From Alphaproteobacteria bacterium (lineage in GTDB: Bacteria > Pseudomonadota > Alphaproteobacteria > M2410), in assembly GCA_030614785.1 (NCBI GenBank), contig JAUWTJ010000004.1, positions 1,609 to 65,608 on the forward strand: DNA of 64,000 bases, in the 5' to 3' direction. Within the stretch, counting starts at the first letter, position 1, and every line of letters begins with the position of its first letter. The notes beneath the pieces were generated by a model. That model saw only the letters and a program-made list of their open reading frames with translations. It was not told the DNA's origin and did no database searches. Both the position numbers and the translations under genes were made by a program. This document shows positions 4,684 to 35,353 of the stretch, in pieces.

Positions 4684-5046
4684 GATACCCACCCCGCCAT
4701 TTCCGAGCCCCCCGGCTCTGGAGGAAGCCATATTACGGTAAATTGGCGCAAAAATCAATTTAGCACAGATCCTGCTCCGCCGATGGATGCAGTCCGCACG
4801 GTTGCCAAGGAAAGGCGACCCGGTGTTGCAAAACCCCGATCGACTTGAACGGCTCACGCCCTGTCTGCCCGGGGTCACGCTGGAGCCGATGATCGAGACG
4901 ATGCAGCCAATGGTAATTATTATTAAGTAAGTAAACTACTTGTAGTATTATTCCCGTGCGGACGACCTTTTCCTGCGTATGACAATTCGCACCTTGTCTC
5001 TGATTGCAAACCTCGGCATGGTGGCCCCATTCTTCCACGACAGGGT

Positions 5047-5685
5047 GTGCTCGCACAAATGACAGAACAGGGTGACAGGTTTTTTGTTCTTGCGGTCTCA
5101 ATTGCCGCAAGACTACATGACGCCCTTGACGACGCGCGGAGTATATCCCTGCAAGCGATGAATGCCCAGGCTTCGATCGCCCGGGCGGGCGAGCAATCCA
5201 GAGCCATGGAACCGATTGTCGACTATATGAACGGGTTATCGCTCTCAATTATCCAGCTCGTGCAAGACGTTGATGACGAGGCCCTCTTGATTTCCCGCGA
5301 GTCCCTGACAGAGTTTCGGGAGAGCGTTGCTGTTGAGAGGTTTGTCGACGCCGTTCGATTGGGCCAGGGTGCAAAACATATGGATGCCATCGAGGCAAAG
5401 GTGGAACTCTTGCGCCACAATCTGACGGTGATACGACAGGGGACGGGGAAGAAAATCAGCGTGCTGATCGGGCTGCTGTCCTCGATCGAGACCACCCTGC
5501 TTTCTGCAAATATCGTGACCTCCAGTTTTCGTATTGAAGTCGGCAAACTTGATTCCGAACACAAAGTGACATTCGAGTCGTTGATCGGTGCTTTCAATAC
5601 CGCGACGCAAAACATTCGATCTGTCGTCAATCGCTGCAAGGCAGACCTGGCAACCACCCGGGTGCTGGCCACAACAAAAAGATAA
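5047..5685 (+). CDS. short soluble protein with a degenerate MCP signalling-domain-like core (NAQASIARAGEQSRA vs MCP consensus [16 protein letters not shown])
   Basis: 212-aa ORF, coiled-coil-like, no TM; core motif resembles the highly conserved methyl-accepting chemotaxis protein signalling hairpin tip. Confidence 0.4.
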   Translation: MLAQMTEQGDRFFVLAVSIAARLHDALDDARSISLQAMNAQASIARAGEQSRAMEPIVDYMNGLSLSIIQLVQDVDDEALLISRESLTEFRESVAVERFVDAVRLGQGAKHMDAIEAKVELLRHNLTVIRQGTGKKISVLIGLLSSIETTLLSANIVTSSFRIEVGKLDSEHKVTFESLIGAFNTATQNIRSVVNRCKADLATTRVLATTKR

Positions 5686-5696
5686 AGAGATCAACA

Positions 5697-6428
5697 ATGA
5701 AGGCAACGAAATTGTTCGAGCACTATGATCACGAGTGGATTGTGTTTGGCCGCGACCCGGAAAAACCGACGGGCATCATTGATACCAACCAGTATATGAT
5801 CAAGGCACGAGGCGCGGCGATGCTGCTTGATCCGGGCGGTGTTGAGTTATTCGCGCCAATGCTTGCGGCCGTCGCGCAACATGTGCCAATCAGTTCGATC
5901 AAGCACCTCTTCGCATCACATCAGGATCCTGATATTATTTCCTCACTGGGTTTGTGGGACAAGACACTTGAAGGGGCAACCCTTTATGCCCCCTGGATTT
6001 GGGAAGGGTTCATCAAACACTTCGGCTGTGAGGCAATCGTCTATGATCCGCTGCCGGACGAAGGTCGGACCATTCGATTTGGCGATACCGAGCTTGAGTT
6101 TGTGCCAGCCCACTACCTCCACTCCTCGGGTAATTTCAGCGTCTATGACAAGTCGGCCAAAATTCTGATGAGCGGGGACATCGGTGCAGCGCTGCTTCCT
6201 GATGGTGCGCCGTTCTTTGTGGAGGACTTCGATACACATACCTCTGCCATGACGATGTTTCACCAACGATGGATGCCCTCAAACAAGGCCAAGGCGGCCT
6301 GGATCGCACGGGTTCGAGAGCTGGATGTGGATTATATGGCCCCTCAGCATGGCGCCATTTTCAAAGGCGAGGATGTCGTCCGATTTCTGGACTGGTTCGA
6401 CGCCCTTGAGGTGGGCATCGCGGTTTGA
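5697..6428 (+). CDS. MBL-fold protein, flavodiiron-N-terminal / ODP-like (non-hydrolase metallo-beta-lactamase fold)
   Basis: 243-aa ORF 11 nt after the preceding gene; motif SHQDPD replaces the hydrolase HxHxDH motif, plus conserved later His/Asp (HYLHSSG, MSGD, FHQRW) as in di-iron FprA/ODP-type domains. Confidence 0.45.
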   Translation: MKATKLFEHYDHEWIVFGRDPEKPTGIIDTNQYMIKARGAAMLLDPGGVELFAPMLAAVAQHVPISSIKHLFASHQDPDIISSLGLWDKTLEGATLYAPWIWEGFIKHFGCEAIVYDPLPDEGRTIRFGDTELEFVPAHYLHSSGNFSVYDKSAKILMSGDIGAALLPDGAPFFVEDFDTHTSAMTMFHQRWMPSNKAKAAWIARVRELDVDYMAPQHGAIFKGEDVVRFLDWFDALEVGIAV

Positions 6429-6756
6429 ATCAGACCTGCATGGCGTTGATCCTTGTTCATGCCGCCTGCCCCGGGTCAGACGTCCCGGGTCAATCAGCGG
6501 GAGCCGGGGCGTCAGGCGTCTGACGCCAGGCCTTTCAGTATGGTCGCTACCGAATACCTGAAGGCCTCTTCGACCGGGCCGTCAAAGCCGAAATTGCCGT
6601 CTATTTCCATAGTGACGAAACCGGTGAGAAAGCTGATGAAGCAGCGCGCCGCAGCAAGCCCGCCTGGATGACGGGCTGACAAAAATGGGGCGCACGCTGC
6701 CTCATCCCGCATTGGTTATTTTCAGGCCGCGTGCTAGCAATGAAGCATCAAACACC

Positions 6757-7329
6757 ATGAAGGAGGGAAATCCCATGTCGCTGCAGAAACTGGTTGTTAC
6801 ACTATTTGGCGTCCTGGCGCTGAGTGGTTTGATCTCGTCGGCGCAGGCTGGCATGGAGGCGTTTCACGCCGGCCCCGTCTTTCCGGACTTCGGGAAGATC
6901 GCCAGTGTCGACAGCCAATTCCCCATACCCGAAGGAACTGTCTTCAAGATGGTCCTCGACGTCAGCGACGCATCAAAACCCGGCGCCCTGAACCGCACGT
7001 TTGAAAGCGCCGCCCGGTTTATCAACATGCATGTTGATGCTGGTGTGCCGCTGGAAAATATTTCCGTCGCCGTTGTTGTCCATGGCGGCGCGGCGCTCGA
7101 CGTCACGCAGAACAGCTTCTACCAGGCGAAGCGCGAAAGCGATAATCCAAATGCAGCGCTTATTGACGCGCTGACGAGCAAGGGCGTGAACATATACCTA
7201 TGCGGACAAAGCGCAGCCTATGCCGACGTGAGCAACAAGGACCTGCTTGCCGGTGTCACGATGGCCCGGTCTGCCATGACAGCCCACGCCCTCTTGCAGC
7301 AGCGCGGTTATACGCTAAATCCGTTCTAG
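6757..7329 (+). CDS. secreted DsrE/DsrF-like family protein
   Basis: signal peptide MSLQKLVVTLFGVLALSGLISSAQA; VVVHGGAA...IYLCGQSA core resembles the DsrE-like sulfur-relay fold; start ATG at 6757 preceded by GGAGGG. Confidence 0.4.
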   Translation: MKEGNPMSLQKLVVTLFGVLALSGLISSAQAGMEAFHAGPVFPDFGKIASVDSQFPIPEGTVFKMVLDVSDASKPGALNRTFESAARFINMHVDAGVPLENISVAVVVHGGAALDVTQNSFYQAKRESDNPNAALIDALTSKGVNIYLCGQSAAYADVSNKDLLAGVTMARSAMTAHALLQQRGYTLNPF

Positions 7330-7560: not shown

Positions 7561-8739
7561 GTGCCGGGTCGCATGGACAACCTTGAAAGCGAAGTCATGC
7601 CTGTTACCTCATCGCTTGCTACATCACACGGCGCCCAGCTCGTCCTCCTCGCGCAGGACAAATCGCAACACGGCCGGGCTGTGCTGACCACTGCCATTGT
7701 GGAACTGTTTTCCGAAGACGCCCGACTGTTTACGGATTCGGACCGTGAGCTGATGACACAGATCATCGTTCAACTGGTTGACAGCGTCGAGATATCCGTC
7801 AAGACGGCGCTCGCCGAGCGATTGGCAAACCAACCCGATACGCCGCGAGACCTGGCGATGCACTTTGCCAATATGGAGGCGGGTGTTGCATTCGCCATTC
7901 TGAAAAACTCGCCGGCTCTGAAAGATCCGGACCTGATCCGGATTGTGATGCACAAGACCATGGAGCATCAAATGGCCGTCTCGGCACGCTCAATCATTTC
8001 GCCGGCCGTATCCGGAGCGCTGGCCGAGAGCGAGCACGACAGTGTGGTCCAGGCGCTGCTGGAAAATAGCGGTGCCACAATCGACCATGAAACCTTCGAG
8101 GGCATAGCCGGAAGAACGACGGAAGATACTGTCTTCAACGAGGCGCTGGTCAACAGGCGCGACCTGCCAAAACATGTTTGTCACCAGCTTTACTGGGCGG
8201 TCTCCGCGGCCTTGCGACAGACTCTCATTGACAATCACGACATCGATGAAGACAGCATTGACGACGCTATTGAAGGCGTTCTTTCCGACATGATCGAGCA
8301 TCTCGCAGATGAGAAAACCGAAGGCGAGGATGTCGCGGCCCGGGTTGAGCTGGCGATACGCAAGGGCGTTCTTGGCGAAGCCCTGCTGGCGCTCTTGCAA
8401 TCGGTGCAGATCCACAGATTTACGACGTGGCTTGCCGCTGCAAGTCACCTCAGGGAGGATCTCATCAGCAGGATCATGTTCGAAGAGGGCGGCGAATGTC
8501 TGGCGGCCATTTTCAAAGCGCTTGAAATTGATCGGGAAGACTTCCTGTCGATCTTTGTTTTTCTGAGGCAGGGACGCCTCGGAGAAAAGACGGTTCCCGC
8601 AGACGAGATCCAGCGCGCCGCCGAATTTTATTCCGGGGTCAAACCGGACCGGGCCGCGAAGTTTCTCAAGCGACTGCAAAGGAATCCGGATTATCTGAAT
8701 GCAATCCGGACGGTCAATACACGCAGCGCCGGGGCCTGA
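7561..8739 (+). CDS. DUF2336-family protein (alphaproteobacteria-restricted, helical repeats)
   Basis: 392-aa alpha-helical ORF with the repeated architecture typical of the DUF2336 family. Confidence 0.5.
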   Translation: MPGRMDNLESEVMPVTSSLATSHGAQLVLLAQDKSQHGRAVLTTAIVELFSEDARLFTDSDRELMTQIIVQLVDSVEISVKTALAERLANQPDTPRDLAMHFANMEAGVAFAILKNSPALKDPDLIRIVMHKTMEHQMAVSARSIISPAVSGALAESEHDSVVQALLENSGATIDHETFEGIAGRTTEDTVFNEALVNRRDLPKHVCHQLYWAVSAALRQTLIDNHDIDEDSIDDAIEGVLSDMIEHLADEKTEGEDVAARVELAIRKGVLGEALLALLQSVQIHRFTTWLAAASHLREDLISRIMFEEGGECLAAIFKALEIDREDFLSIFVFLRQGRLGEKTVPADEIQRAAEFYSGVKPDRAAKFLKRLQRNPDYLNAIRTVNTRSAGA

Positions 8740-8771
8740 GGTCCTATCAGGCGTCAAGCCGGCGCGCCGGA

Positions 8772-10652
8772 TCAATCCGCTTTGGCCGCCTGTACCCGCT
8801 CCTGCACACCGGTCTTTGCAACCAGATCACGAAACCATATCACTGGATTTTCGGACGCCCCGGGTCCAGGCGAGAATTTTACCTCGCCCAGTTCACTGAC
8901 AAACTCCGGATCGCGCATCCATTGAAGAATGTGCCGTGAGGCTCTGGTGGCGCAGGTGCCCTCTGTCAGAACCTTCGCGTCGAGCAACCTGAGCATGGTC
9001 AGGGCCTTTTCAGCCCCGGAGACCGCGCGCCGGGAAATCGACTGGAAGAGCTGACCCTCCTCCTCGACCCTCGACGACAGGACATCAAATGCCTCAACAA
9101 CCTGGCCCTTTTCCGTCTCGGGAAATCCCGAGGCCAGAACCCGGCCCTGCAAGGCGGCCAGGCATCCAAGCCGGCGCAGCAGAGGTTCATGCGCATCGAG
9201 AAACAGCCGTTCCATCTTTGGACCGGTCAAGATCGGCAGGATGTAGTTGACCAGACGCGCCTTGCTGGCGCTGCCAATAATATTGTCTTCAAGGTCGAGC
9301 AACAATTCGATCCGGGCATCGGGCGTCGAGGCAGCGGCCATATACTCCTCGGCCATTTCCAGTGCCGTCAATCGAACCGACCGGGTTTCAAAGGCTGACA
9401 CAATATCCTCAAGCGAGACCATCGGCCCCTGGCACAGAACCATGCGTTTGGCCAGGCTTCGCGTCAGCGCAACCTCACGGTTGATATCGTCGGGACTGAG
9501 GCGCTTGATCCCGTTCAGCTCCTGCAGGACCCGGGTGACGATCGCCTTGCGGGAATGCGGCAGGCCATCGTTGACAAAGAACCCGGCAAGTTGTTTCAGT
9601 CCCGGGCGTCCGGCAATGTCAGGGTTGTCTGCATTGCCTAAAAACAGATCCACCATCAGGGTCAGCGAGGCCCCAAGGTCGGGCTGCGCACCGAGGAAAT
9701 CCGCCAGTGACGCGCGCCCGCTCACCATTTCGGCGGCAAAGTCATCAATAGAGGCAAGGCACACCGCCTGTCCACGCTCTTCGCCCGGCAAGTGATCCAT
9801 CAGGGACAACAGAAGGGGCAGTTTTTTCGAACAGCCGGAGACTTTACTCAGTGTACGGGCAATGGCGCAGTTAATCACATAGTTTGGCTCCGGTACCGCG
9901 CGCGCCGCCTCCCATGCCCGCCCGAGATTGCCCTCGGCGTCTTTCGGACATCTTCCGGCCCGATCTTCGGTGAAGACCCGTGCCATACCGCGCGATACCA
10001 GATCATTGAGCTGTTTGATGATCTCCGTCACCGGCAGGTTTTCGGCTGACGCCTGAACGACCGCCCATTTCTGCACCGCATGTTGCATGACCGTTCCTCT
10101 GGACTGCAGGCTTTGCAGTACATCGGCGCGGTGCAAAAGCTCCATCGTCGTCAGGCCTTCGCCCTTCAAGGTATCTTCCAGGACACGCGAGATTGCGGCC
10201 CGGGCCTTTGACCCATAAAGATCACTCGGCGTGGCACAGGGGAGACGTACATCCTCCGGCCGCAGCTGCCGCTTATGCTTGACGACCTTCGGGCCACCCT
10301 CTTCAAAAACTGTAATGGGCAGGTATTCGCCGGTCGCAAGGTTACAGGTTTCCTTGATCACTTTTGCGCCCGAGAATGTTTTCTGCAGCAAGGCGTATTT
10401 GGCGGCGTTCAGCGCCGCGCCGCGCTCGGCAAAGGCCTCTTGTAAAACCCAGCCGGTGTCGCCGGCACGGATCACAAGAACCTCGTAGTGAATCTGCTTT
10501 GCCAAAGGAAGCCCCAGTTGTTCCCGTCGTTGAACCCCTTCAACACCCTGATGATAGGAAACTCTGCTTAAGGTCGAGTAAATTGTAACCTTCTTACAGC
10601 ACCAACTTTTACGCGTTTTACTGGAAGAGCCTGGCTGGCTCAACACGCTCAA
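8772..10652 (-). CDS. large hypothetical protein (626 aa as drawn; true start uncertain, listed start is TTG)
   Basis: long ORF with good coding character, no recognisable domain; immediately downstream of tRNA-Thr on the same strand. Confidence 0.45.
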   Translation of the reverse strand: MSVLSQPGSSSKTRKSWCCKKVTIYSTLSRVSYHQGVEGVQRREQLGLPLAKQIHYEVLVIRAGDTGWVLQEAFAERGAALNAAKYALLQKTFSGAKVIKETCNLATGEYLPITVFEEGGPKVVKHKRQLRPEDVRLPCATPSDLYGSKARAAISRVLEDTLKGEGLTTMELLHRADVLQSLQSRGTVMQHAVQKWAVVQASAENLPVTEIIKQLNDLVSRGMARVFTEDRAGRCPKDAEGNLGRAWEAARAVPEPNYVINCAIARTLSKVSGCSKKLPLLLSLMDHLPGEERGQAVCLASIDDFAAEMVSGRASLADFLGAQPDLGASLTLMVDLFLGNADNPDIAGRPGLKQLAGFFVNDGLPHSRKAIVTRVLQELNGIKRLSPDDINREVALTRSLAKRMVLCQGPMVSLEDIVSAFETRSVRLTALEMAEEYMAAASTPDARIELLLDLEDNIIGSASKARLVNYILPILTGPKMERLFLDAHEPLLRRLGCLAALQGRVLASGFPETEKGQVVEAFDVLSSRVEEEGQLFQSISRRAVSGAEKALTMLRLLDAKVLTEGTCATRASRHILQWMRDPEFVSELGEVKFSPGPGASENPVIWFRDLVAKTGVQERVQAAKAD

Positions 10653-10771
10653 CGGGAAAGACTACACCCACAGCGTTCGGGCCGCTGACTGTCTGGTCCT
10701 GAAGGTAAAAGTCGTACCGCTAACGCGAGGAAGATTGAACTCTGAACGCTTTTTCTGTGAAAAAGCTTTAG

Positions 10772-10849
10772 TGGTGCCGCTAAGGTGATTCGAACACCTG
10801 ACCCCCGCATTACGAATGCGATGCTCTACCAACTGAGCTATAGCGGCAC
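10772..10849 (-). tRNA. tRNA-Thr (anticodon CGT)
   Basis: reverse complement GTGCCGCTATAGCTCAGTTGGTAGAGCATCGCATTCGTAATGCGGGGGTCAGGTGTTCGAATCACCTTAGCGGCACCA folds as a cloverleaf; anticodon loop TTCGTAA; encoded CCA. Confidence 0.85.
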
Positions 10850-10897
10850 TCTCCCGGTCCAGGACCCTTGAGAAAGGGCCCTCGCGAGGCGTTTTTC

Positions 10898-11863
10898 CTA
10901 CTCTGAACCGGGTTGCGGTGCAAGGGCTTTCAGGAAGGCCGCGAGATCGGCGGCGCTGGTGGCGGGGACCTCTTCCATGGGGATATGGCCGACGCCATCA
11001 TAGAGAATGAGGTTCGAGTTCGGGATTTTCTCATCGAATACATGGGCGCCGTGCACCGGGACCCAGGTGTCCTCTGCCCCCCACAGAATGAGGGTCGGGG
11101 CCGCGATCTCGCCGAGGCGCTCAACCGGGCTGGCCTGCCACGGCGTGTTCATGCGAACCAGGGTTGCCTCGCGCCGGCCTTCGCGCAACAGGAAGGCCTG
11201 GATGCGGGTCACCATGTCTTCCGTGACGATCTCGCCCCTGGCGACGGCATCAAGCAGCTGCGCCTTCACGGTGTCGCGCGGCAGGATATGGAGCAGGAGG
11301 TTTTTCAGGAGCGGCATGCGGGCGACCCGGTAGACCAGCGCTTCATCGTTATCACCCTGGCGCGGAATGCCCGAGGCATCGACCAGCACGAGGGCATCAA
11401 GATCATCAGGGTGGGTCAACGCATAGCGCCAGGCGATGCCGCCGCCCATGGAATTGCCAATCAGAGTGAAGCTGTCGAGGTTCATGGCGCGCACGAAATC
11501 TTCGAGAAATTTCTCATAGTTCGTGTGCGAATAGTCATAGCCCGGCGCAAGCGAGGACAGGCCGTGGCCGAGAAGGTCGACTGACACGATGCGGTAGTGC
11601 AGCGCCAGTTCGGAGTGCGCCCAGGGCTCCCAGGTATAGAGCGAGGCGTTCGAGCCATGGACGAGGAGAAGGACGGGTCCCTGCCTGTTGCCCTGATCGC
11701 GGTAGTGGGCGGTGAGGCCACTGGCGAGCTCAATGAATTGCGATGGTGGCTGGCCGTAGCGTTCGACAAGCGTATCGTAGGGAATATCGGCATCCCGAAT
11801 GCCAAGGAAGGCGCCGAAAAGGATGCCGCCGAGTAACAATAGAAAGATAAAAAATCTGCGCAT
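10898..11863 (-). CDS. alpha/beta-fold hydrolase (membrane-anchored)
   Basis: N-terminal TM helix; HGSNASL...GNSMGG nucleophile elbow. Confidence 0.7.
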   Translation of the reverse strand: MRRFFIFLLLLGGILFGAFLGIRDADIPYDTLVERYGQPPSQFIELASGLTAHYRDQGNRQGPVLLLVHGSNASLYTWEPWAHSELALHYRIVSVDLLGHGLSSLAPGYDYSHTNYEKFLEDFVRAMNLDSFTLIGNSMGGGIAWRYALTHPDDLDALVLVDASGIPRQGDNDEALVYRVARMPLLKNLLLHILPRDTVKAQLLDAVARGEIVTEDMVTRIQAFLLREGRREATLVRMNTPWQASPVERLGEIAAPTLILWGAEDTWVPVHGAHVFDEKIPNSNLILYDGVGHIPMEEVPATSAADLAAFLKALAPQPGSE

Positions 11864-11922
11864 CGGCCTTACCTCCTGTCGTTTTCTTGCCGCTTTTCTG
11901 TCGCTTTTCCGTCGTGGGCCGC

Positions 11923-13638
11923 CTACCAGCCGTCCTTGTTATCGGGGTCATCGGGGTCATCGAAAGGGTTCGCACCCGGGCCCGGGTCATCGACCGGCGG
12001 CGCTGTCAACGGGGCGTCACTTTCTGCGCTCCCGCCCGGCGCGGCGATGACACTTTCTCTTGCCAGCGGATTTGACGCGCCGACTTTTGACGCCCTGCCG
12101 TGCTGCGGGACGGACGCAGTATCAGGCACAGCATCTATGATAACAGGCGCGCTGGCTGGCTTGTCGGCGGCTGTTTTTTCATCAGTATCTTTTTCATCTG
12201 TATTCGGCGGCGTGGCAACGGGGGTTATATCCTTTGCACCAACCCCGCCCTCTTCCTCTGTGATGTCCTCTTTGCCATCCTCTTTGCTATCCTCGGGAGC
12301 CTCTGCTTCCACCGGTTCAAGAACCAGCCCGGCGATGAGGTCGGCGGGGGCCTGCCAGCTCAACGTATCAAAGGCGCCGCAATTGTTGCAGGTCGAGGTC
12401 CACGCCGCGCTCTCGCGGCCACAGGTCTCGCACATCCAGTGGGCGTCGCGCGGTGCGGTGACGGTTTTTGACAGCCAGTCGCGCGCGAGATCCTCGTTGC
12501 CATCTGCCGCCTCGATGTCGGCCATGAGCTTGCAGACGCGGGCGGTGGCGTACCCTTCGGCGAGGCCCGCAAGATGCTTGCGCGCCGGTTTGTGGCGGCC
12601 AAGGGCAAGATCTTGCTGCGCGCGCAGCAGGCGGCTTTCAATGTGGTCGCGATTGAAGTCAGCCAGACCCTTGAGCCATTTGGCGTCGGCCCTGATGTCT
12701 TCGGCTTCGGGATCGCGCCCCTTTCTCGCTTCTGCGTAGGCGGGAACAAGATCGGGATGCGGCGATGCGGTCCAGGCTTTCTCGATGGTCTGCGCGGCCT
12801 TCCACAGGTTGTCGGCGCGGATGTGATGCCTGGCGGCAAGCACGGCAGCCGGAACCAGACCGGGGGAGAGGTCTGCGGCTTTCAAGCCCCAGTCTTCGGC
12901 TTCTTTGGCCTCACCCTTACCTGCGGCATCCAAAGCCTGCTCGGTATAAAGAACAGCGCTGCGACGCCTGGCGACACCGGCTTCAATGTGTTTTGAGGCA
13001 ACGGATTTCTCAAGCGTTTGTGCAGCCGCGGACCATTCACCGATCGCGGACTGGAGCTCGAAGAGGGCATTGAAAACCCAGGGCGTTTCCGGCTGCAGCT
13101 CGAAAGCGCGCTCGGCCAGACCGAGCGCTTCGAGACGGTTACCGCTGCGGGCGCTTTGCAGAAAAAGCCCGCGCAAACCGAGAAACTCCGTCTCCGGATT
13201 ATCGAGCATTTTCTTGTAGGCTTTGGCGGCGCGCTTTTCATCGCCTTCCAGTTGGGCCGCCTGCGCCGACAGCAGCAGCGTCAGCGGCGGATCATTGAGC
13301 AGCGCATTGGCGCGGGCGGCGAGTTTTCTCACCTCGCTCGGGTTACCGGCCGCAACCGCGACAAGACCCTGACGCAGCGCCTCCTGGCCCCGGACCTGGC
13401 GGCGGGTGCTCGCCCAGGTGAGGAGCGCAACCGGGCCGCCAATGGTGCGCAGCAACAGGCGGTAGCCATAAAGCAGCAGCGCCATGAAGAGGATCAGCAG
13501 CACGGCGACAAGGGTGAAGCTGGTCTCGATCCGGTAGCCAAACCAGGTGACAGCAAAGTCACCGGGATTGTCGGCAAGCCACGCCCCGCTTGCGGCGAGG
13601 GCAGCAATAACAAAGAGGAACCAGAACGCTTTCCACAT
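11923..13638 (-). CDS. hemY: HemY N-terminal-domain protein (TPR, membrane) with an acidic low-complexity C-terminal tail
   Basis: two N-terminal TM helices then TPR region, family resemblance to proteobacterial HemY; position downstream of hemC-hemD-mic60-like. Confidence 0.7.
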   Translation of the reverse strand: MWKAFWFLFVIAALAASGAWLADNPGDFAVTWFGYRIETSFTLVAVLLILFMALLLYGYRLLLRTIGGPVALLTWASTRRQVRGQEALRQGLVAVAAGNPSEVRKLAARANALLNDPPLTLLLSAQAAQLEGDEKRAAKAYKKMLDNPETEFLGLRGLFLQSARSGNRLEALGLAERAFELQPETPWVFNALFELQSAIGEWSAAAQTLEKSVASKHIEAGVARRRSAVLYTEQALDAAGKGEAKEAEDWGLKAADLSPGLVPAAVLAARHHIRADNLWKAAQTIEKAWTASPHPDLVPAYAEARKGRDPEAEDIRADAKWLKGLADFNRDHIESRLLRAQQDLALGRHKPARKHLAGLAEGYATARVCKLMADIEAADGNEDLARDWLSKTVTAPRDAHWMCETCGRESAAWTSTCNNCGAFDTLSWQAPADLIAGLVLEPVEAEAPEDSKEDGKEDITEEEGGVGAKDITPVATPPNTDEKDTDEKTAADKPASAPVIIDAVPDTASVPQHGRASKVGASNPLARESVIAAPGGSAESDAPLTAPPVDDPGPGANPFDDPDDPDNKDGW

Positions 13639-33454: not shown

Positions 33455-33921
33455 CGAAGACGCTGCGGATTGAATGCACACAGTTGCCGCACGGAGAAGG
33501 CATGCCCCTGCCTGCCTATGAAACCTCGGGTGCGGCAGGCATGGATCTGATGGCGGCAACGCCTCAAGGCGAGGACATTGTGCTTGCGCCGGGCGAGCGC
33601 CGCCTGATCCCGACCGGGCTTTCGATTGCGGTGCCTGAAGGCTATGAGGCGCAGATCCGTCCGCGGTCGGGCCTGGCGCTGCGCCACGGGATCTCGATCG
33701 TCAATGCACCGGGTACGGTGGATTCAGATTATCGCGGTGAGGTCAGTATCCTCCTGATCAATCTCGGACAGGCCCCTTTCACCATAAGGCGCGGCGAACG
33801 AGTGGGTCAGATGGTTATCTCGGCATTTGTGCAGGCCGAATGGCAAGTCGTCACTTCGCTTGATGAGACGGCGCGCGGCGCGGGCGGCTATGGCTCCACT
33901 GGAACCGGGGGCGCAGACTGA
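33451..33921 (+). CDS. dut: dUTP diphosphatase
   Basis: AAGMDL ... RSGLA ... dUTPase motifs; ATGA overlap with coaBC. Confidence 0.9.
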
Positions 33922-33922
33922 T

Positions 33923-34375
33923 ATGTTCACGCTGTCCCGCAAAATGCAGCTGGCGCTTGAGGCCGTTGTCGACGTGGCCTTCAACGCGCGGCCTGACCCG
34001 GTGCAGTCCAAGGATATCACGAGGCGGCAGGGCATTCCCCAGCGCTATCTTGAGCAGGTGATGCAGCGGCTGGTGCGCGAGGGCATTCTGAAGGGCGTGC
34101 GAGGCCCCCGGGGCGGCTATCGGCTGGCCCGCGAGCGGCGGCGTATTTCTGTCGGCGAGATCCTCGCGGTCGTGAGCCAGATTGAACAGGCTGAGGAAGA
34201 GGCAGGCCCACGCCCCTCGGAGCTTGCGTCGGAAGTCGTCCGCCCTCTGATGGCAAAAATGAACGAGCAGTTTATGACAGAGCTTGAAAAAGTGACCCTT
34301 GAGGACCTGTGCCACGAGGCCCGTGAAAAAGGTATAGAACCCGAAAGCTCGATCCGTATGGATTTCAACATCTAG
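33923..34375 (+). CDS. Rrf2-family transcriptional regulator lacking the Cys cluster (CymR-like)
   Basis: N-terminal wHTH LSRKMQLALEAVVDVA...KDITRRQGIPQRYLEQVMQRLVREGIL; only one Cys, so not an Fe-S IscR/NsrR type; starts 2 nt after the dut stop. Confidence 0.65.
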   Translation: MFTLSRKMQLALEAVVDVAFNARPDPVQSKDITRRQGIPQRYLEQVMQRLVREGILKGVRGPRGGYRLARERRRISVGEILAVVSQIEQAEEEAGPRPSELASEVVRPLMAKMNEQFMTELEKVTLEDLCHEAREKGIEPESSIRMDFNI

Positions 34376-34390
34376 AAAGGACTTCCGCCC

Positions 34391-35353
34391 ATGTCTGACA
34401 GCACAAGAAAACCCGGTCGCGGCCGTATCTTCAACTCGATCACCGACACCATGGGCGACACGCCGCTCGTGCGACTGAACAGGATGGCGAAGGATGCAGG
34501 CGCCAGGGCCGACATCCTGCTGAAGCTTGAGTTTTTCAATCCGCTGGCCAGCGTCAAGGACCGGATCGGCGTTTCGATGATCGAGGCGCTGGAACGCGAA
34601 GGACGCATCACCAAGGACACCGTGTTGATCGAACCGACCTCCGGCAACACCGGGATCGCGCTGGCGTTCGTTGCCGCCGCCAAAGGCTACAAGCTCATTC
34701 TGGTGATGCCCGAAAGCATGTCGATTGAACGGCGCAAGATGCTGCTCATTCTTGGCGCCAAACTTGAGCTCACCCCGGCAGAGCTGGGTATGAAGGGCGC
34801 GCTGGCCAAAGCCAGTGAACTGGTCGAACAACACCCCAATGCGGTGATGCCGCAGCAGTTTGAGAACCCCTCCAACCCGGAGATCCACCGCACGACAACG
34901 GCGCTTGAAATCTGGAACGATACGGACGGCAAGGTCGATGCGGTCATCGCAGGGGTCGGCACAGGCGGCACGCTCACCGGTGTTGGCCAGGTGCTGCACG
35001 AGAAAAAGCCCGGCTTTAAAATGATTGCCGTGGAGCCTGAAGACAGCCCGGTGATCTCCGGCGGCCAGCCCGGCCCGCACAAGATTCAGGGCATCGGCGC
35101 CGGTTTTATCCCGGAAAACCTCGATCGCGCCCAAGTCGACGAGGTCGTTACCATCGGCACCGAGACCGCCTTTGCCACGGCGCGCCGCATGGCCGCCGAG
35201 GAAGGCATCCCGGTCGGGATCTCATCGGGGGCGGCGGTTGCCGCTGCGCTTGAAGTCGCCGCGCGCGACGACATGGCAGGCAAGACTATCGTCGTCATCA
35301 TCCCGTCCTTCGCCGAGCGCTATCTTTCAACCGCACTCTTCGAAGGGCTCTAG
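34391..35353 (+). CDS. cysK: cysteine synthase A (O-acetylserine sulfhydrylase)
   Basis: PLP lysine region [25 protein letters not shown] motifs. Confidence 0.9.

Follow-up and report, generated by a model that had tools for sequence, protein, structure and literature searches.

Two adjacent genes lie on the forward strand of a 64-kb stretch of an alphaproteobacterial contig (JAUWTJ010000004.1), which we refer to in its whole length as the window. One encodes a 208-residue helical protein (gene A) and the other a standalone metallo-beta-lactamase (MBL)-fold protein (gene B). [quoted passage not shown] The evidence, all of which is computational, comprises the identity of gene B, the homology of both halves of gene A to the tip of the methyl-accepting chemotaxis protein (MCP) signalling domain, the predicted fold of gene A, the strict pairing of the two genes, and the linkage of the pair to che genes in other lineages. 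From these we infer the physical binding of gene A to ODP and to CheW/CheA, all other physical contacts, and the direction of signalling. The two open reading frames (ORFs), the gap between them, and the two motifs singled out in the initial annotation of the locus are all as that annotation described them (Table 1).

Gene B encodes an oxygen-binding di-iron protein

Gene B matched the Pfam family of oxygen-binding di-iron proteins (PF19583) over the entire profile (positions 1-194 of 194) with an E-value of 3.6e-71 and a score of 239.5 bits against a cut-off of 27.2, and it matched the solved ODPs in PDB entries 6qrq and 6qnm with E-values of 2e-62 and 3.5e-58, respectively. The residues D45, H75-Q-D77-P-D79-I80, H139, D161, and Q217-H218 were invariant across 13 diverse members of its clade, and the metal-site motifs are the same in both crystallised ODPs. 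Motif 2 of gene B has Ile80 at the place of the last His of the hydrolase motif HxHxDH. In the published coordination of ODP a Gln at motif 5 stands in for the third His of motif 2 (PMC7785958), and the combination of Q217 with an Ile-ended motif 2 in gene B fits this arrangement. Gene B is thus an ODP beyond reasonable doubt, as the initial annotation had supposed in assigning the MBL-fold protein to the di-iron type rather than to the hydrolases; the intact HxHxDH centre that it had named as grounds for abandoning this assignment is absent, and SHQDPDI stands in its place. Characterised ODPs are sensors that act by direct contact with cognate sensor-less receptors (PMC6978683, PMC7666581, PMC7319448).

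Two other identities were considered for gene B and ruled out. Flavodiiron proteins (FprA/ROO/NorV) and hydrolytic metallo-beta-lactamases have the MBL fold and a binuclear metal site in common with gene B, but gene B is a single domain that ends at 243 aa without a flavodoxin domain, and its motif, H-Q-D-P-D-I, follows the pattern H-x-D-x-D-I rather than the H-x-E-x-D-H of the flavodiiron core or the HxHxDH of the hydrolases. The NorV model scored 20 bits on gene B against a cut-off of 635, matches to flavodiiron and zinc beta-lactamase families were marginal (E ~1e-4 or worse), and those to class-B lactamases had E-values above 0.05.

Gene A belongs to a family related to the MCP signalling tip

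Gene A has no transmembrane, HAMP, or sensor segment. Single-sequence searches of NCBIfam and PDB with gene A returned nothing, and a sub-threshold match to TnsA_C (18 bits against a cut-off of 23.4) was dismissed as helical noise. A word-indexed search yielded six close relatives and an exhaustive profile search the wider family, which comprises 175 representatives at 50% identity, 92 of them at E ≤ 1e-10. Nearly all members are standalone proteins of ~195-220 aa; no Pfam domain is on record for any of the family proteins or called genes that were looked up, and the few that have a name are entered as "hypothetical protein". The strict methylation consensus was found in one of 111 members, and a chain of ~200 aa is too short to hold methylation helices.

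Compared with the window protein, the family consensus, SLxAxNAxAxxxRAGxxAxGFxPITDFIxELA, comes much closer to the MCP tip. When 138 family members were scanned singly, 104 matched the MCP signalling domain (MCPsignal, PF00015) at E ≤ 1, the best of them at 5.9e-9. The family profile matched the solved proteins Tm14 (E 5e-12), Tm1143 (3.5e-9), and Tsr (2.6e-5), HH-suite gave a probability of 95% for the match of hairpin 1 to Tm14, and canonical MCPs fell in with the gene A cluster under BLAST single-linkage clustering. This shows that gene A is a true, very divergent relative of the MCP signalling tip, detectable at the level of the family profile only. Its best solved relative, for both halves of the protein, is Tm14, the receptor that works with ODP in Thermotoga maritima (PMC6978683, PMC7666581).

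Gene A appears to contain two tips in a single chain

In Tm14, a single long hairpin of 213 aa that forms a homodimer, the tip lies mid-chain, whereas the tip motif of gene A is found at residue ~45 of 208 and a second tip at ~165, so that each chain has two short hairpins of ~100 residues whose helices span only about 6-8 heptads each. Conservation in the family is concentrated in two blocks, residues 9-61 and 136-186, which make up the tip end. The second block has the consensus SR[VI]EA[SA]RAG-EYR..LE.VAD.LE, in which E160 is kept in 137 of 138 members. A profile built from the C-terminal half of the family alone matched the Tm14 tip in register (E 6.1e-8; HH probability 92%), and comparison of the N-terminal with the C-terminal half gave a probability of 80% (P 1.5e-5) with the two turns superposed. 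In Tsr numbering, we take N35, R42, G44, and the family's G49-F50 to be equivalent to N381, R388, G390, and G395-F396, and E160 to be equivalent to E385. The conserved tip residues of an MCP (N381, E385, R388, G390, E391, and F396 in Tsr) are divided between the two hairpins: N35, which is invariant among the 138 members, R42 and G44, which are nearly so, and E45 lie on hairpin 1, while E160 lies on hairpin 2; the Phe at position 50 of the family is Met in the window clade. Judged from these alignments, the two hairpins keep complementary tip residues, which supports a tandem duplication.

AlphaFold2 modelled the window's gene A as all-helical with a predicted local distance difference test (pLDDT) of 95 and a predicted template-modelling score (pTM) of 0.88, and a second family member at 26% identity likewise with a pLDDT of 95, the pTM of the two models being 0.87-0.88. 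Both models superposed on single-chain four-helix-bundle maquettes (5vju, 6z0c, 8d9p) with a root-mean-square deviation of 5.3-6.0 Å over ~200 columns, versus 66.5 Å for a genuine MCP hairpin (2ch7_B), and Tm14 was not among the structural matches. As predicted, the chain folds into a compact up-down-up-down bundle that has the two tips on one end and the variable loop of residues 102-107 on the other. In this layout helix H1 (residues 5-44) would pass through tip 1 (~45-48) into H2 (48-101) and, beyond the loop, H3 (108-162) through tip 2 (163-166) into H4 (166-206). DSSP assigned a turn at 163-165, in tip 2, and a break at 102-107, and tip 2 is an indel hot spot in the family. Taken as a whole, gene A has the look of a single-chain "pseudo-dimer" in which the kinase-control tip of a receptor has been duplicated in tandem, without the methylation region.

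Gene A and ODP are strictly paired and lie in che operons in other lineages

Loci were collected through gene A with a 16-sequence alignment, and 80 further metagenome loci were retrieved through ODP. All 30 loci retrieved through gene A in genomes and assemblies had gene A directly upstream of ODP and co-oriented with it, and the same order was found in the five informative loci of distant family members (20-25% identity), often with a 4-nt overlap. In the pooled set of 117 loci, gene A was directly upstream of ODP in 111 of the 111 that were informative. This shows a strict, obligate pairing far beyond chance. Among metagenomes, this ODP clade is represented by at least 529 stretches. ODP is far more conserved (62-84% identity) than gene A (20-40%), and within the window clade the dN/dS ratio was 0.06-0.08 for ODP and 0.14-0.22 for gene A; both genes are under purifying selection there. 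The flanks differ wholly between lineages, one relative (locus L004) sharing only gene A and ODP with the window, and therefore the pair itself is the unit.

In about 31 of the 117 loci, the sampling of which is redundant within genera, the flanks include a core che gene or a gene for a canonical MCP, and in 12 more they include genes of receiver (REC) type only. Among several independent arrangements in which the pair forms part of a chemosensory operon are four types. In type I (L042, L044, L046, L047, L056, L066), the operon reads A-ODP-STAS-CheY-CheA-CheW-ParA-like, with REC-PP2C-HATPase_c_2 and STAS genes in divergent orientation, and gene A is the sole receptor-like gene in the visible part of the operon. 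Type II (L067, L077, L083, L091, L107) reads cheR-cheD-cheY-cheB-A-ODP. Type III, found in Terasakiella, combines MCP-cheR-cheD-cheB-X-REC-PP2C with A-ODP-CheY further along and an Hpt gene on the opposite strand, and in type IV an Hpt-REC-PP2C or REC-PP2C-HATPase_c_2 gene lies directly 5' of the pair. In Oceanospirillum and Oleiphilus (L014-L022, L025-L027), a gene for a canonical HAMP-MCP runs divergently from the pair, and one for SBP-PAS-GGDEF-EAL is found nearby, which hints at ties to both chemotaxis and c-di-GMP signalling.

Genes for REC-PP2C(SpoIIE), with or without HATPase_c_2, and for STAS recur beside A-ODP and che genes in L042, L044, L046, L047, L056, L066, and L121, and partner-switch genes were also seen at L007-L013, L059, L090, L094, L097, L101, and L105. 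Such recurrence suggests that, in some lineages, a sigma-factor partner switch may be under the control of ODP input. ParA-like proteins position cytoplasmic chemoreceptor clusters, and a gene for a ParA/MinD-like ATPase (AAA_31) follows CheW in the type-I operon (L056, 8260-8724; also L047 and L066), a neighbour that is consistent with a soluble array. In Terasakiella (L007-L013, L030; ~8200-12200), A-ODP-CheY is followed by genes for DUF2189, a CtaA/COX15 haem-A synthase, and a match to the COX1 family (haem-copper oxidase subunit I), together with unannotated genes, a layout in which a functional link of O2 sensing with terminal-oxidase genes is possible.

The window's own clade has the most degenerate tips of the gene A family and occurs as an orphan pair. 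Its tip substitutions are conserved inside the clade and, given this together with the purifying selection on gene A, they mark a maintained variant rather than decay. The residues that are invariant or near-invariant in the family, N35, R42, G44, and E160, are all retained in the window's gene A.

Proposed mechanism and alternative explanations

The ODPs of Treponema denticola and T. maritima bind Fe(II) and O2 at their di-iron centre and stabilise an iron-peroxy species. In the mechanism that we propose, the window ODP would likewise bind Fe(II) and O2, stabilise an iron-peroxy species, and change conformation, and its state would be reported by direct, conformation-dependent contact with its cognate receptor, the gene A protein. 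Truncation and tandem duplication of an MCP signalling tip would have given rise to gene A, whose four-helix bundle would imitate a receptor homodimer's tip, one end of the bundle bearing the two tips and almost every conserved residue. Lacking a sensor domain, a HAMP domain, methylation helices, and any transmembrane segment, gene A would be an adaptor only, turning the state of ODP into control of the CheA/CheW kinase. Output would run through CheY-type regulators to motility (aerotaxis), or through REC-PP2C/STAS partner-switch modules to a stress response; for the window pair, the kinase gene would lie in another part of the genome. When two 71-residue tip fragments of Tm14 or Tar are fused into an engineered single-chain dyad, the product binds CheA/CheW and modulates the kinase (bioRxiv 10.1101/2020.03.27.011866), and a single-chain tip format is therefore functionally viable.

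We further propose, tentatively and with slightly less than even confidence, that the gene A family is a new chemoreceptor class: a natural single-chain pseudo-dimer without an adaptation region, whose hairpins split the work, one providing contacts of the N381/R388/F396 type and the other those of the E385 type. It would be the minimal natural CheA-controlling unit, one devoted to a bolt-on O2/Fe(II) sensor and common across marine Proteobacteria.

Several observations weigh against the proposed operon. Taken alone, the window's gene A gave no match to MCPsignal (gathering score 34.6 bits) even at E ≤ 10, an outcome that the initial annotation had named as refuting the MCP-signalling likeness it claimed for the 212-aa form; the likeness stands at the level of the family profile but not for the lone protein. 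The missing match is explained by the loss of family-typical tip residues in the window clade, which has the substitutions F50M, G49A, R148L, A161V, and G165D. No che, REC, STAS, PP2C, or MCP homologue was found by tblastn in the whole 64-kb window. The lack of che genes nearby had been remarked on before and is correct, but the repurposing that was read into it is unsupported for the family, the pair lying inside che operons in several lineages. The flanks of 72 of the 117 loci contain none of the che, MCP, or REC-type genes counted above; orphan pairs are also seen among members with canonical tips, such as one in a bin labelled Methylomonas, and orphan status alone therefore does not imply lost Che coupling. 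CheR, CheB, and CheD adjoin gene A in some operons even though gene A is without methylation motifs, and therefore their substrate may be a different receptor. For the engineered single-chain receptors, a trimerisation domain had to be added (bioRxiv 10.1101/2020.03.27.011866). Mean-field direct coupling analysis (effective number of sequences ~184) gave a best anti-diagonal z of ~2.2, with top pairs mostly in gap-edge columns, and did not confirm the helix packing. Finally, DSSP left the helix unbroken at tip 1 in both models (residues 5-101 and 3-102), and the turn there is therefore placed indirectly, from the superpositions, the homology to the U-turn of MCPs, and the cluster of G44, G49, and P52 (present in 136, 102, and 91 of 138 family members).

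That unbroken helix would suit an explanation in which AlphaFold is misleading, gene A is a conventional short MCP that homodimerises through one long hairpin (arm 5-101 against arm 108-206, with the tip at 102-107), and the repeat is coiled-coil periodicity. The two arms would be equal in length, the two conserved blocks would lie side by side, and the internal repeat signal is moderate. We nonetheless consider it very unlikely: the models are compact and close to the maquettes rather than to the MCP hairpin, with no structural match to Tm14, and both halves match the MCP tip itself, in register. The would-be tip at 102-107 is also the least conserved, indel-bearing part of the protein, G44, G49, and P52 would fall mid-helix, and column 166 is filled in only 37 of 138 members, such that most members lack a residue whose absence would break the heptad register of a continuous arm.

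Two further alternatives concern what the pair does. Gene A, though descended from an MCP tip, could be a dedicated ODP accessory without Che output (a scaffold, chaperone, or regulator of metal loading or stability), kept as an ODP-binding platform while ODP acts alone, for example as a scavenger of O2, H2O2, or NO or as an iron buffer. Such a role would suit the many orphan pairs among housekeeping genes, which make up most of the loci, the loss in the window clade of the F396-equivalent Phe and other tip residues, and the membership of ODP in the same superfamily as the O2/NO-reducing flavodiiron proteins. We regard it as unlikely, however, for ODP has neither the flavodoxin domain nor the adjacent electron donor needed for turnover, characterised ODPs are sensors, the strongest conservation in gene A falls on MCP tip positions (the equivalents of N381, R388, G390, and E385) and not on a new surface, and the pair is repeatedly found inside che operons, ordinary MCP genes being commonly orphan too. 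It is also conceivable, if quite unlikely, that the window clade's pair has been rewired, as the initial annotation suggested, still sensing O2/Fe(II) but signalling to a non-Che target. The selection-maintained degeneracy of its tips would agree with this, as would the absence of che and REC genes within 64 kb and the REC-PP2C, REC-LytTR, and GGDEF-EAL genes that adjoin the pair in other lineages. Yet no alternative partner gene is conserved beside the pair, L004 having only gene A and ODP in common with the window, the four key tip residues N35, R42, G44, and E160 are all kept, and REC-domain neighbours elsewhere would still need a kinase such as CheA. The sensory operon reporting to CheA/CheW thus remains the reading that we prefer.

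The locus and its flanking DNA

The coordinates of the locus are collected in Table 1. The ATG at 5059 is the likelier start of gene A because most of its close homologues (four of six cluster representatives) are 208 aa long. The short spacer between gene A and gene B is consistent with co-transcription, and in many relatives it is replaced by a 4-nt overlap of the two genes. An inverted repeat, GACAA-N8-TTGTC, at 4981-4998 lies inside the conserved leader and may be an operator or promoter element for the operon, a candidate regulatory site; the leader had no Rfam match, and a promoter scan found no consensus sigma-70 promoter in it. The AT-rich stretch noted upstream of the pair in the initial annotation is real (4905-4950, GC 0.24 versus 0.585 for the whole window) and lies in the intergenic region that separates gene A from a divergent M23-peptidase gene. 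An alignment with the relatives L003 and L004 shows the stretch to be missing or unconserved there, and therefore it is probably an ordinary divergent-promoter stretch and no functional element of the pair. Scans for promoters and terminators gave nothing credible 5' of gene A or 3' of gene B. The hairpin downstream of gene B has no U-tract, and folding of the region against shuffled sequence gave a z of -1.35, that is, not unusually stable, making it a weak terminator candidate at best. An Rfam scan found no RNA family at the locus.

Table 1. Coordinates of the A-ODP operon and its sequence features (residue numbers of gene A refer to the 208-aa form).
Feature	Position	Strand	Description
Gene A, longest ORF	5047..5685	+	212 aa, GTG start
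Gene A, likelier form	5059..5685	+	208 aa, ATG start; soluble, all-helical; unannotated family of ODP partners
Intergenic spacer	5686..5696	+	11 nt, TAA-AGAGATCAACA-ATG
Gene B, ODP	5697..6428	+	243 aa; standalone MBL-fold sensor
Tip-1 motif NAQASIARAGEQSRAMEPIVD, gene A residues 35-55	5161..5223	+	Aligns to MCP tip (HMMER and HH alignments to Tm14)
Variable far-end loop GQGAKH, gene A residues 102-107	5362..5379	+	Joins hairpin 1 to hairpin 2; DSSP break; low conservation, indels
Tip-2 block SSFRIEVGKLDSEHKVTFESLIGAFN, gene A residues 155-180	5521..5598	+	Second, more degenerate MCP-tip motif
ODP motif 2, SHQDPD, gene B residues 74-79	5916..5933	+	H75, D77, D79, then Ile
Other gene B metal-site residues	D45 5829; H139 6111; D161 6177; Q217-H218 6345-6350	+	Invariant in clade
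Conserved 5' leader/promoter region of operon	4935..5058	+	~130 nt; alignment of window, L003, and L004
Perfect 8-bp hairpin GGCGTCAG-GCGT-CTGACGCC	6508-6527		~80 nt past ODP stop codon

The window as a whole is a housekeeping region (acs, ubiB, pnp, infB, nusA, fabF). Directly 3' of ODP, at 6685-7329 (+), lies a gene for a DsrE-like protein whose N-terminus looks by eye like a signal peptide; only members of the window's own clade (L001, L003) keep it beside the pair, L004 does not, and the gene is probably unrelated to the pair. Two further ORFs, at 8772-10652 (-; 626 aa) and 33851-35134 (-; 427 aa), are both without a Pfam domain, and a homologue of the former adjoins a DUF2336 gene in the related contigs L001 and L003.

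Relation to known systems and significance

The nearest known counterparts of the pair are Tm14-ODP of T. maritima and TDE2496-ODP/TDE2498 of T. denticola, in which the genes are likewise adjacent and ODP is the sensor and a soluble, sensor-less receptor the transmitter. The initial annotation had described the locus as a mirror of the Tm14/ODP pair; this holds for the ODP partner and for Tm14 as the best solved relative, but not for the architecture of gene A, which has two tandem tip hairpins and not one long hairpin. The hosts differ as well, A-ODP being found in marine Alpha- and Gammaproteobacteria and the Tm14 type in Thermotogae and spirochaetes. Each chain of an MCP signalling domain forms a single long antiparallel hairpin, two of which come together as a homodimeric four-helix bundle, in heptad classes from 24H to 64H; to our knowledge, every known chemoreceptor architecture is a homodimer of long hairpins. 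Gene A departs from several of the features that define an MCP: it falls short of the profile threshold, does not have the format of a long-hairpin homodimer, lacks the adaptation region, and does not hold a full tip within a single hairpin. While gene B is a new member of the known ODP family, gene A is better described as a new variant of MCP signalling domains.

Engineered receptors of the single-chain "dimer" and foldon kind are reportedly the subject of Greenswag 2015. The engineered dyad of Muok et al. (bioRxiv 10.1101/2020.03.27.011866) places two 71-residue tip fragments, with a ~36-residue protein-interaction region, in one polypeptide and is like gene A in design principle and size; it is man-made, however, with identical halves and a foldon for trimerising, whereas gene A is natural, has diverged halves, and is coupled to ODP. 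It was protein engineering that gave rise to the notion that a single-chain ~70-residue tip dyad suffices to engage and regulate CheA. No description of the gene A family was found in the literature searched, which left out the primary ODP paper (Muok et al. 2019, PMC6660769), where such partners are possibly counted as "MCP", and a single-chain tip fusion is described in that literature only as an engineered construct. DosM of the Vibrio cholerae F9 system (PMC7534058) is, like gene A, natural and cytoplasmic with two MCP signalling domains per chain. It is an extended rod with a full signalling domain at each end that bridges two CheA/CheW layers, whereas gene A is compact, its two tips lying at a common end. 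Receptors of the Aer2 type are cytoplasmic and sense O2 in F7-like Che systems; the A-ODP pair, too, would be a soluble O2-sensing input to a Che pathway. Aer2, which elsewhere has homologues that sense O2 with a haem-PAS domain, combines haem-PAS, HAMP, and a full methylatable signalling domain in one polypeptide, whereas in A-ODP sensing and transmission are split and there is no adaptation region. Aer2 is a cytoplasmic receptor genetically linked to the che1 locus of Shewanella oneidensis that signals to Che1, and this locus, which has been implicated in RpoS control, comprises CheA/Y/W/R/D/B, CrsR (REC-PP2C-anti-sigma), and CrsA (STAS) (PMC9855816). The same gene set surrounds A-ODP in several loci.

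The findings would correct the annotation of at least 175 clusters at 50% identity and of at least 529 metagenome ODP loci with a partner that lacks a Pfam record. They also extend ODP sensing to marine Alpha- and Gammaproteobacteria, among them Terasakiella, Oceanospirillum, and the bin labelled Methylomonas, and tie ODP in several lineages to Che-controlled partner-switch modules (REC-PP2C/STAS), beyond motility. If the proposed class is real, gene A would be a receptor that apparently functions without methylation-based adaptation, and its division of labour between hairpins could let the trimer, CheW/CheA, and ODP contacts each have a surface of their own. In that case it would offer a small, soluble, asymmetric minimal receptor for the structural study of CheA switching, one in which the two tips, unlike those of symmetric dimers, can be told apart.

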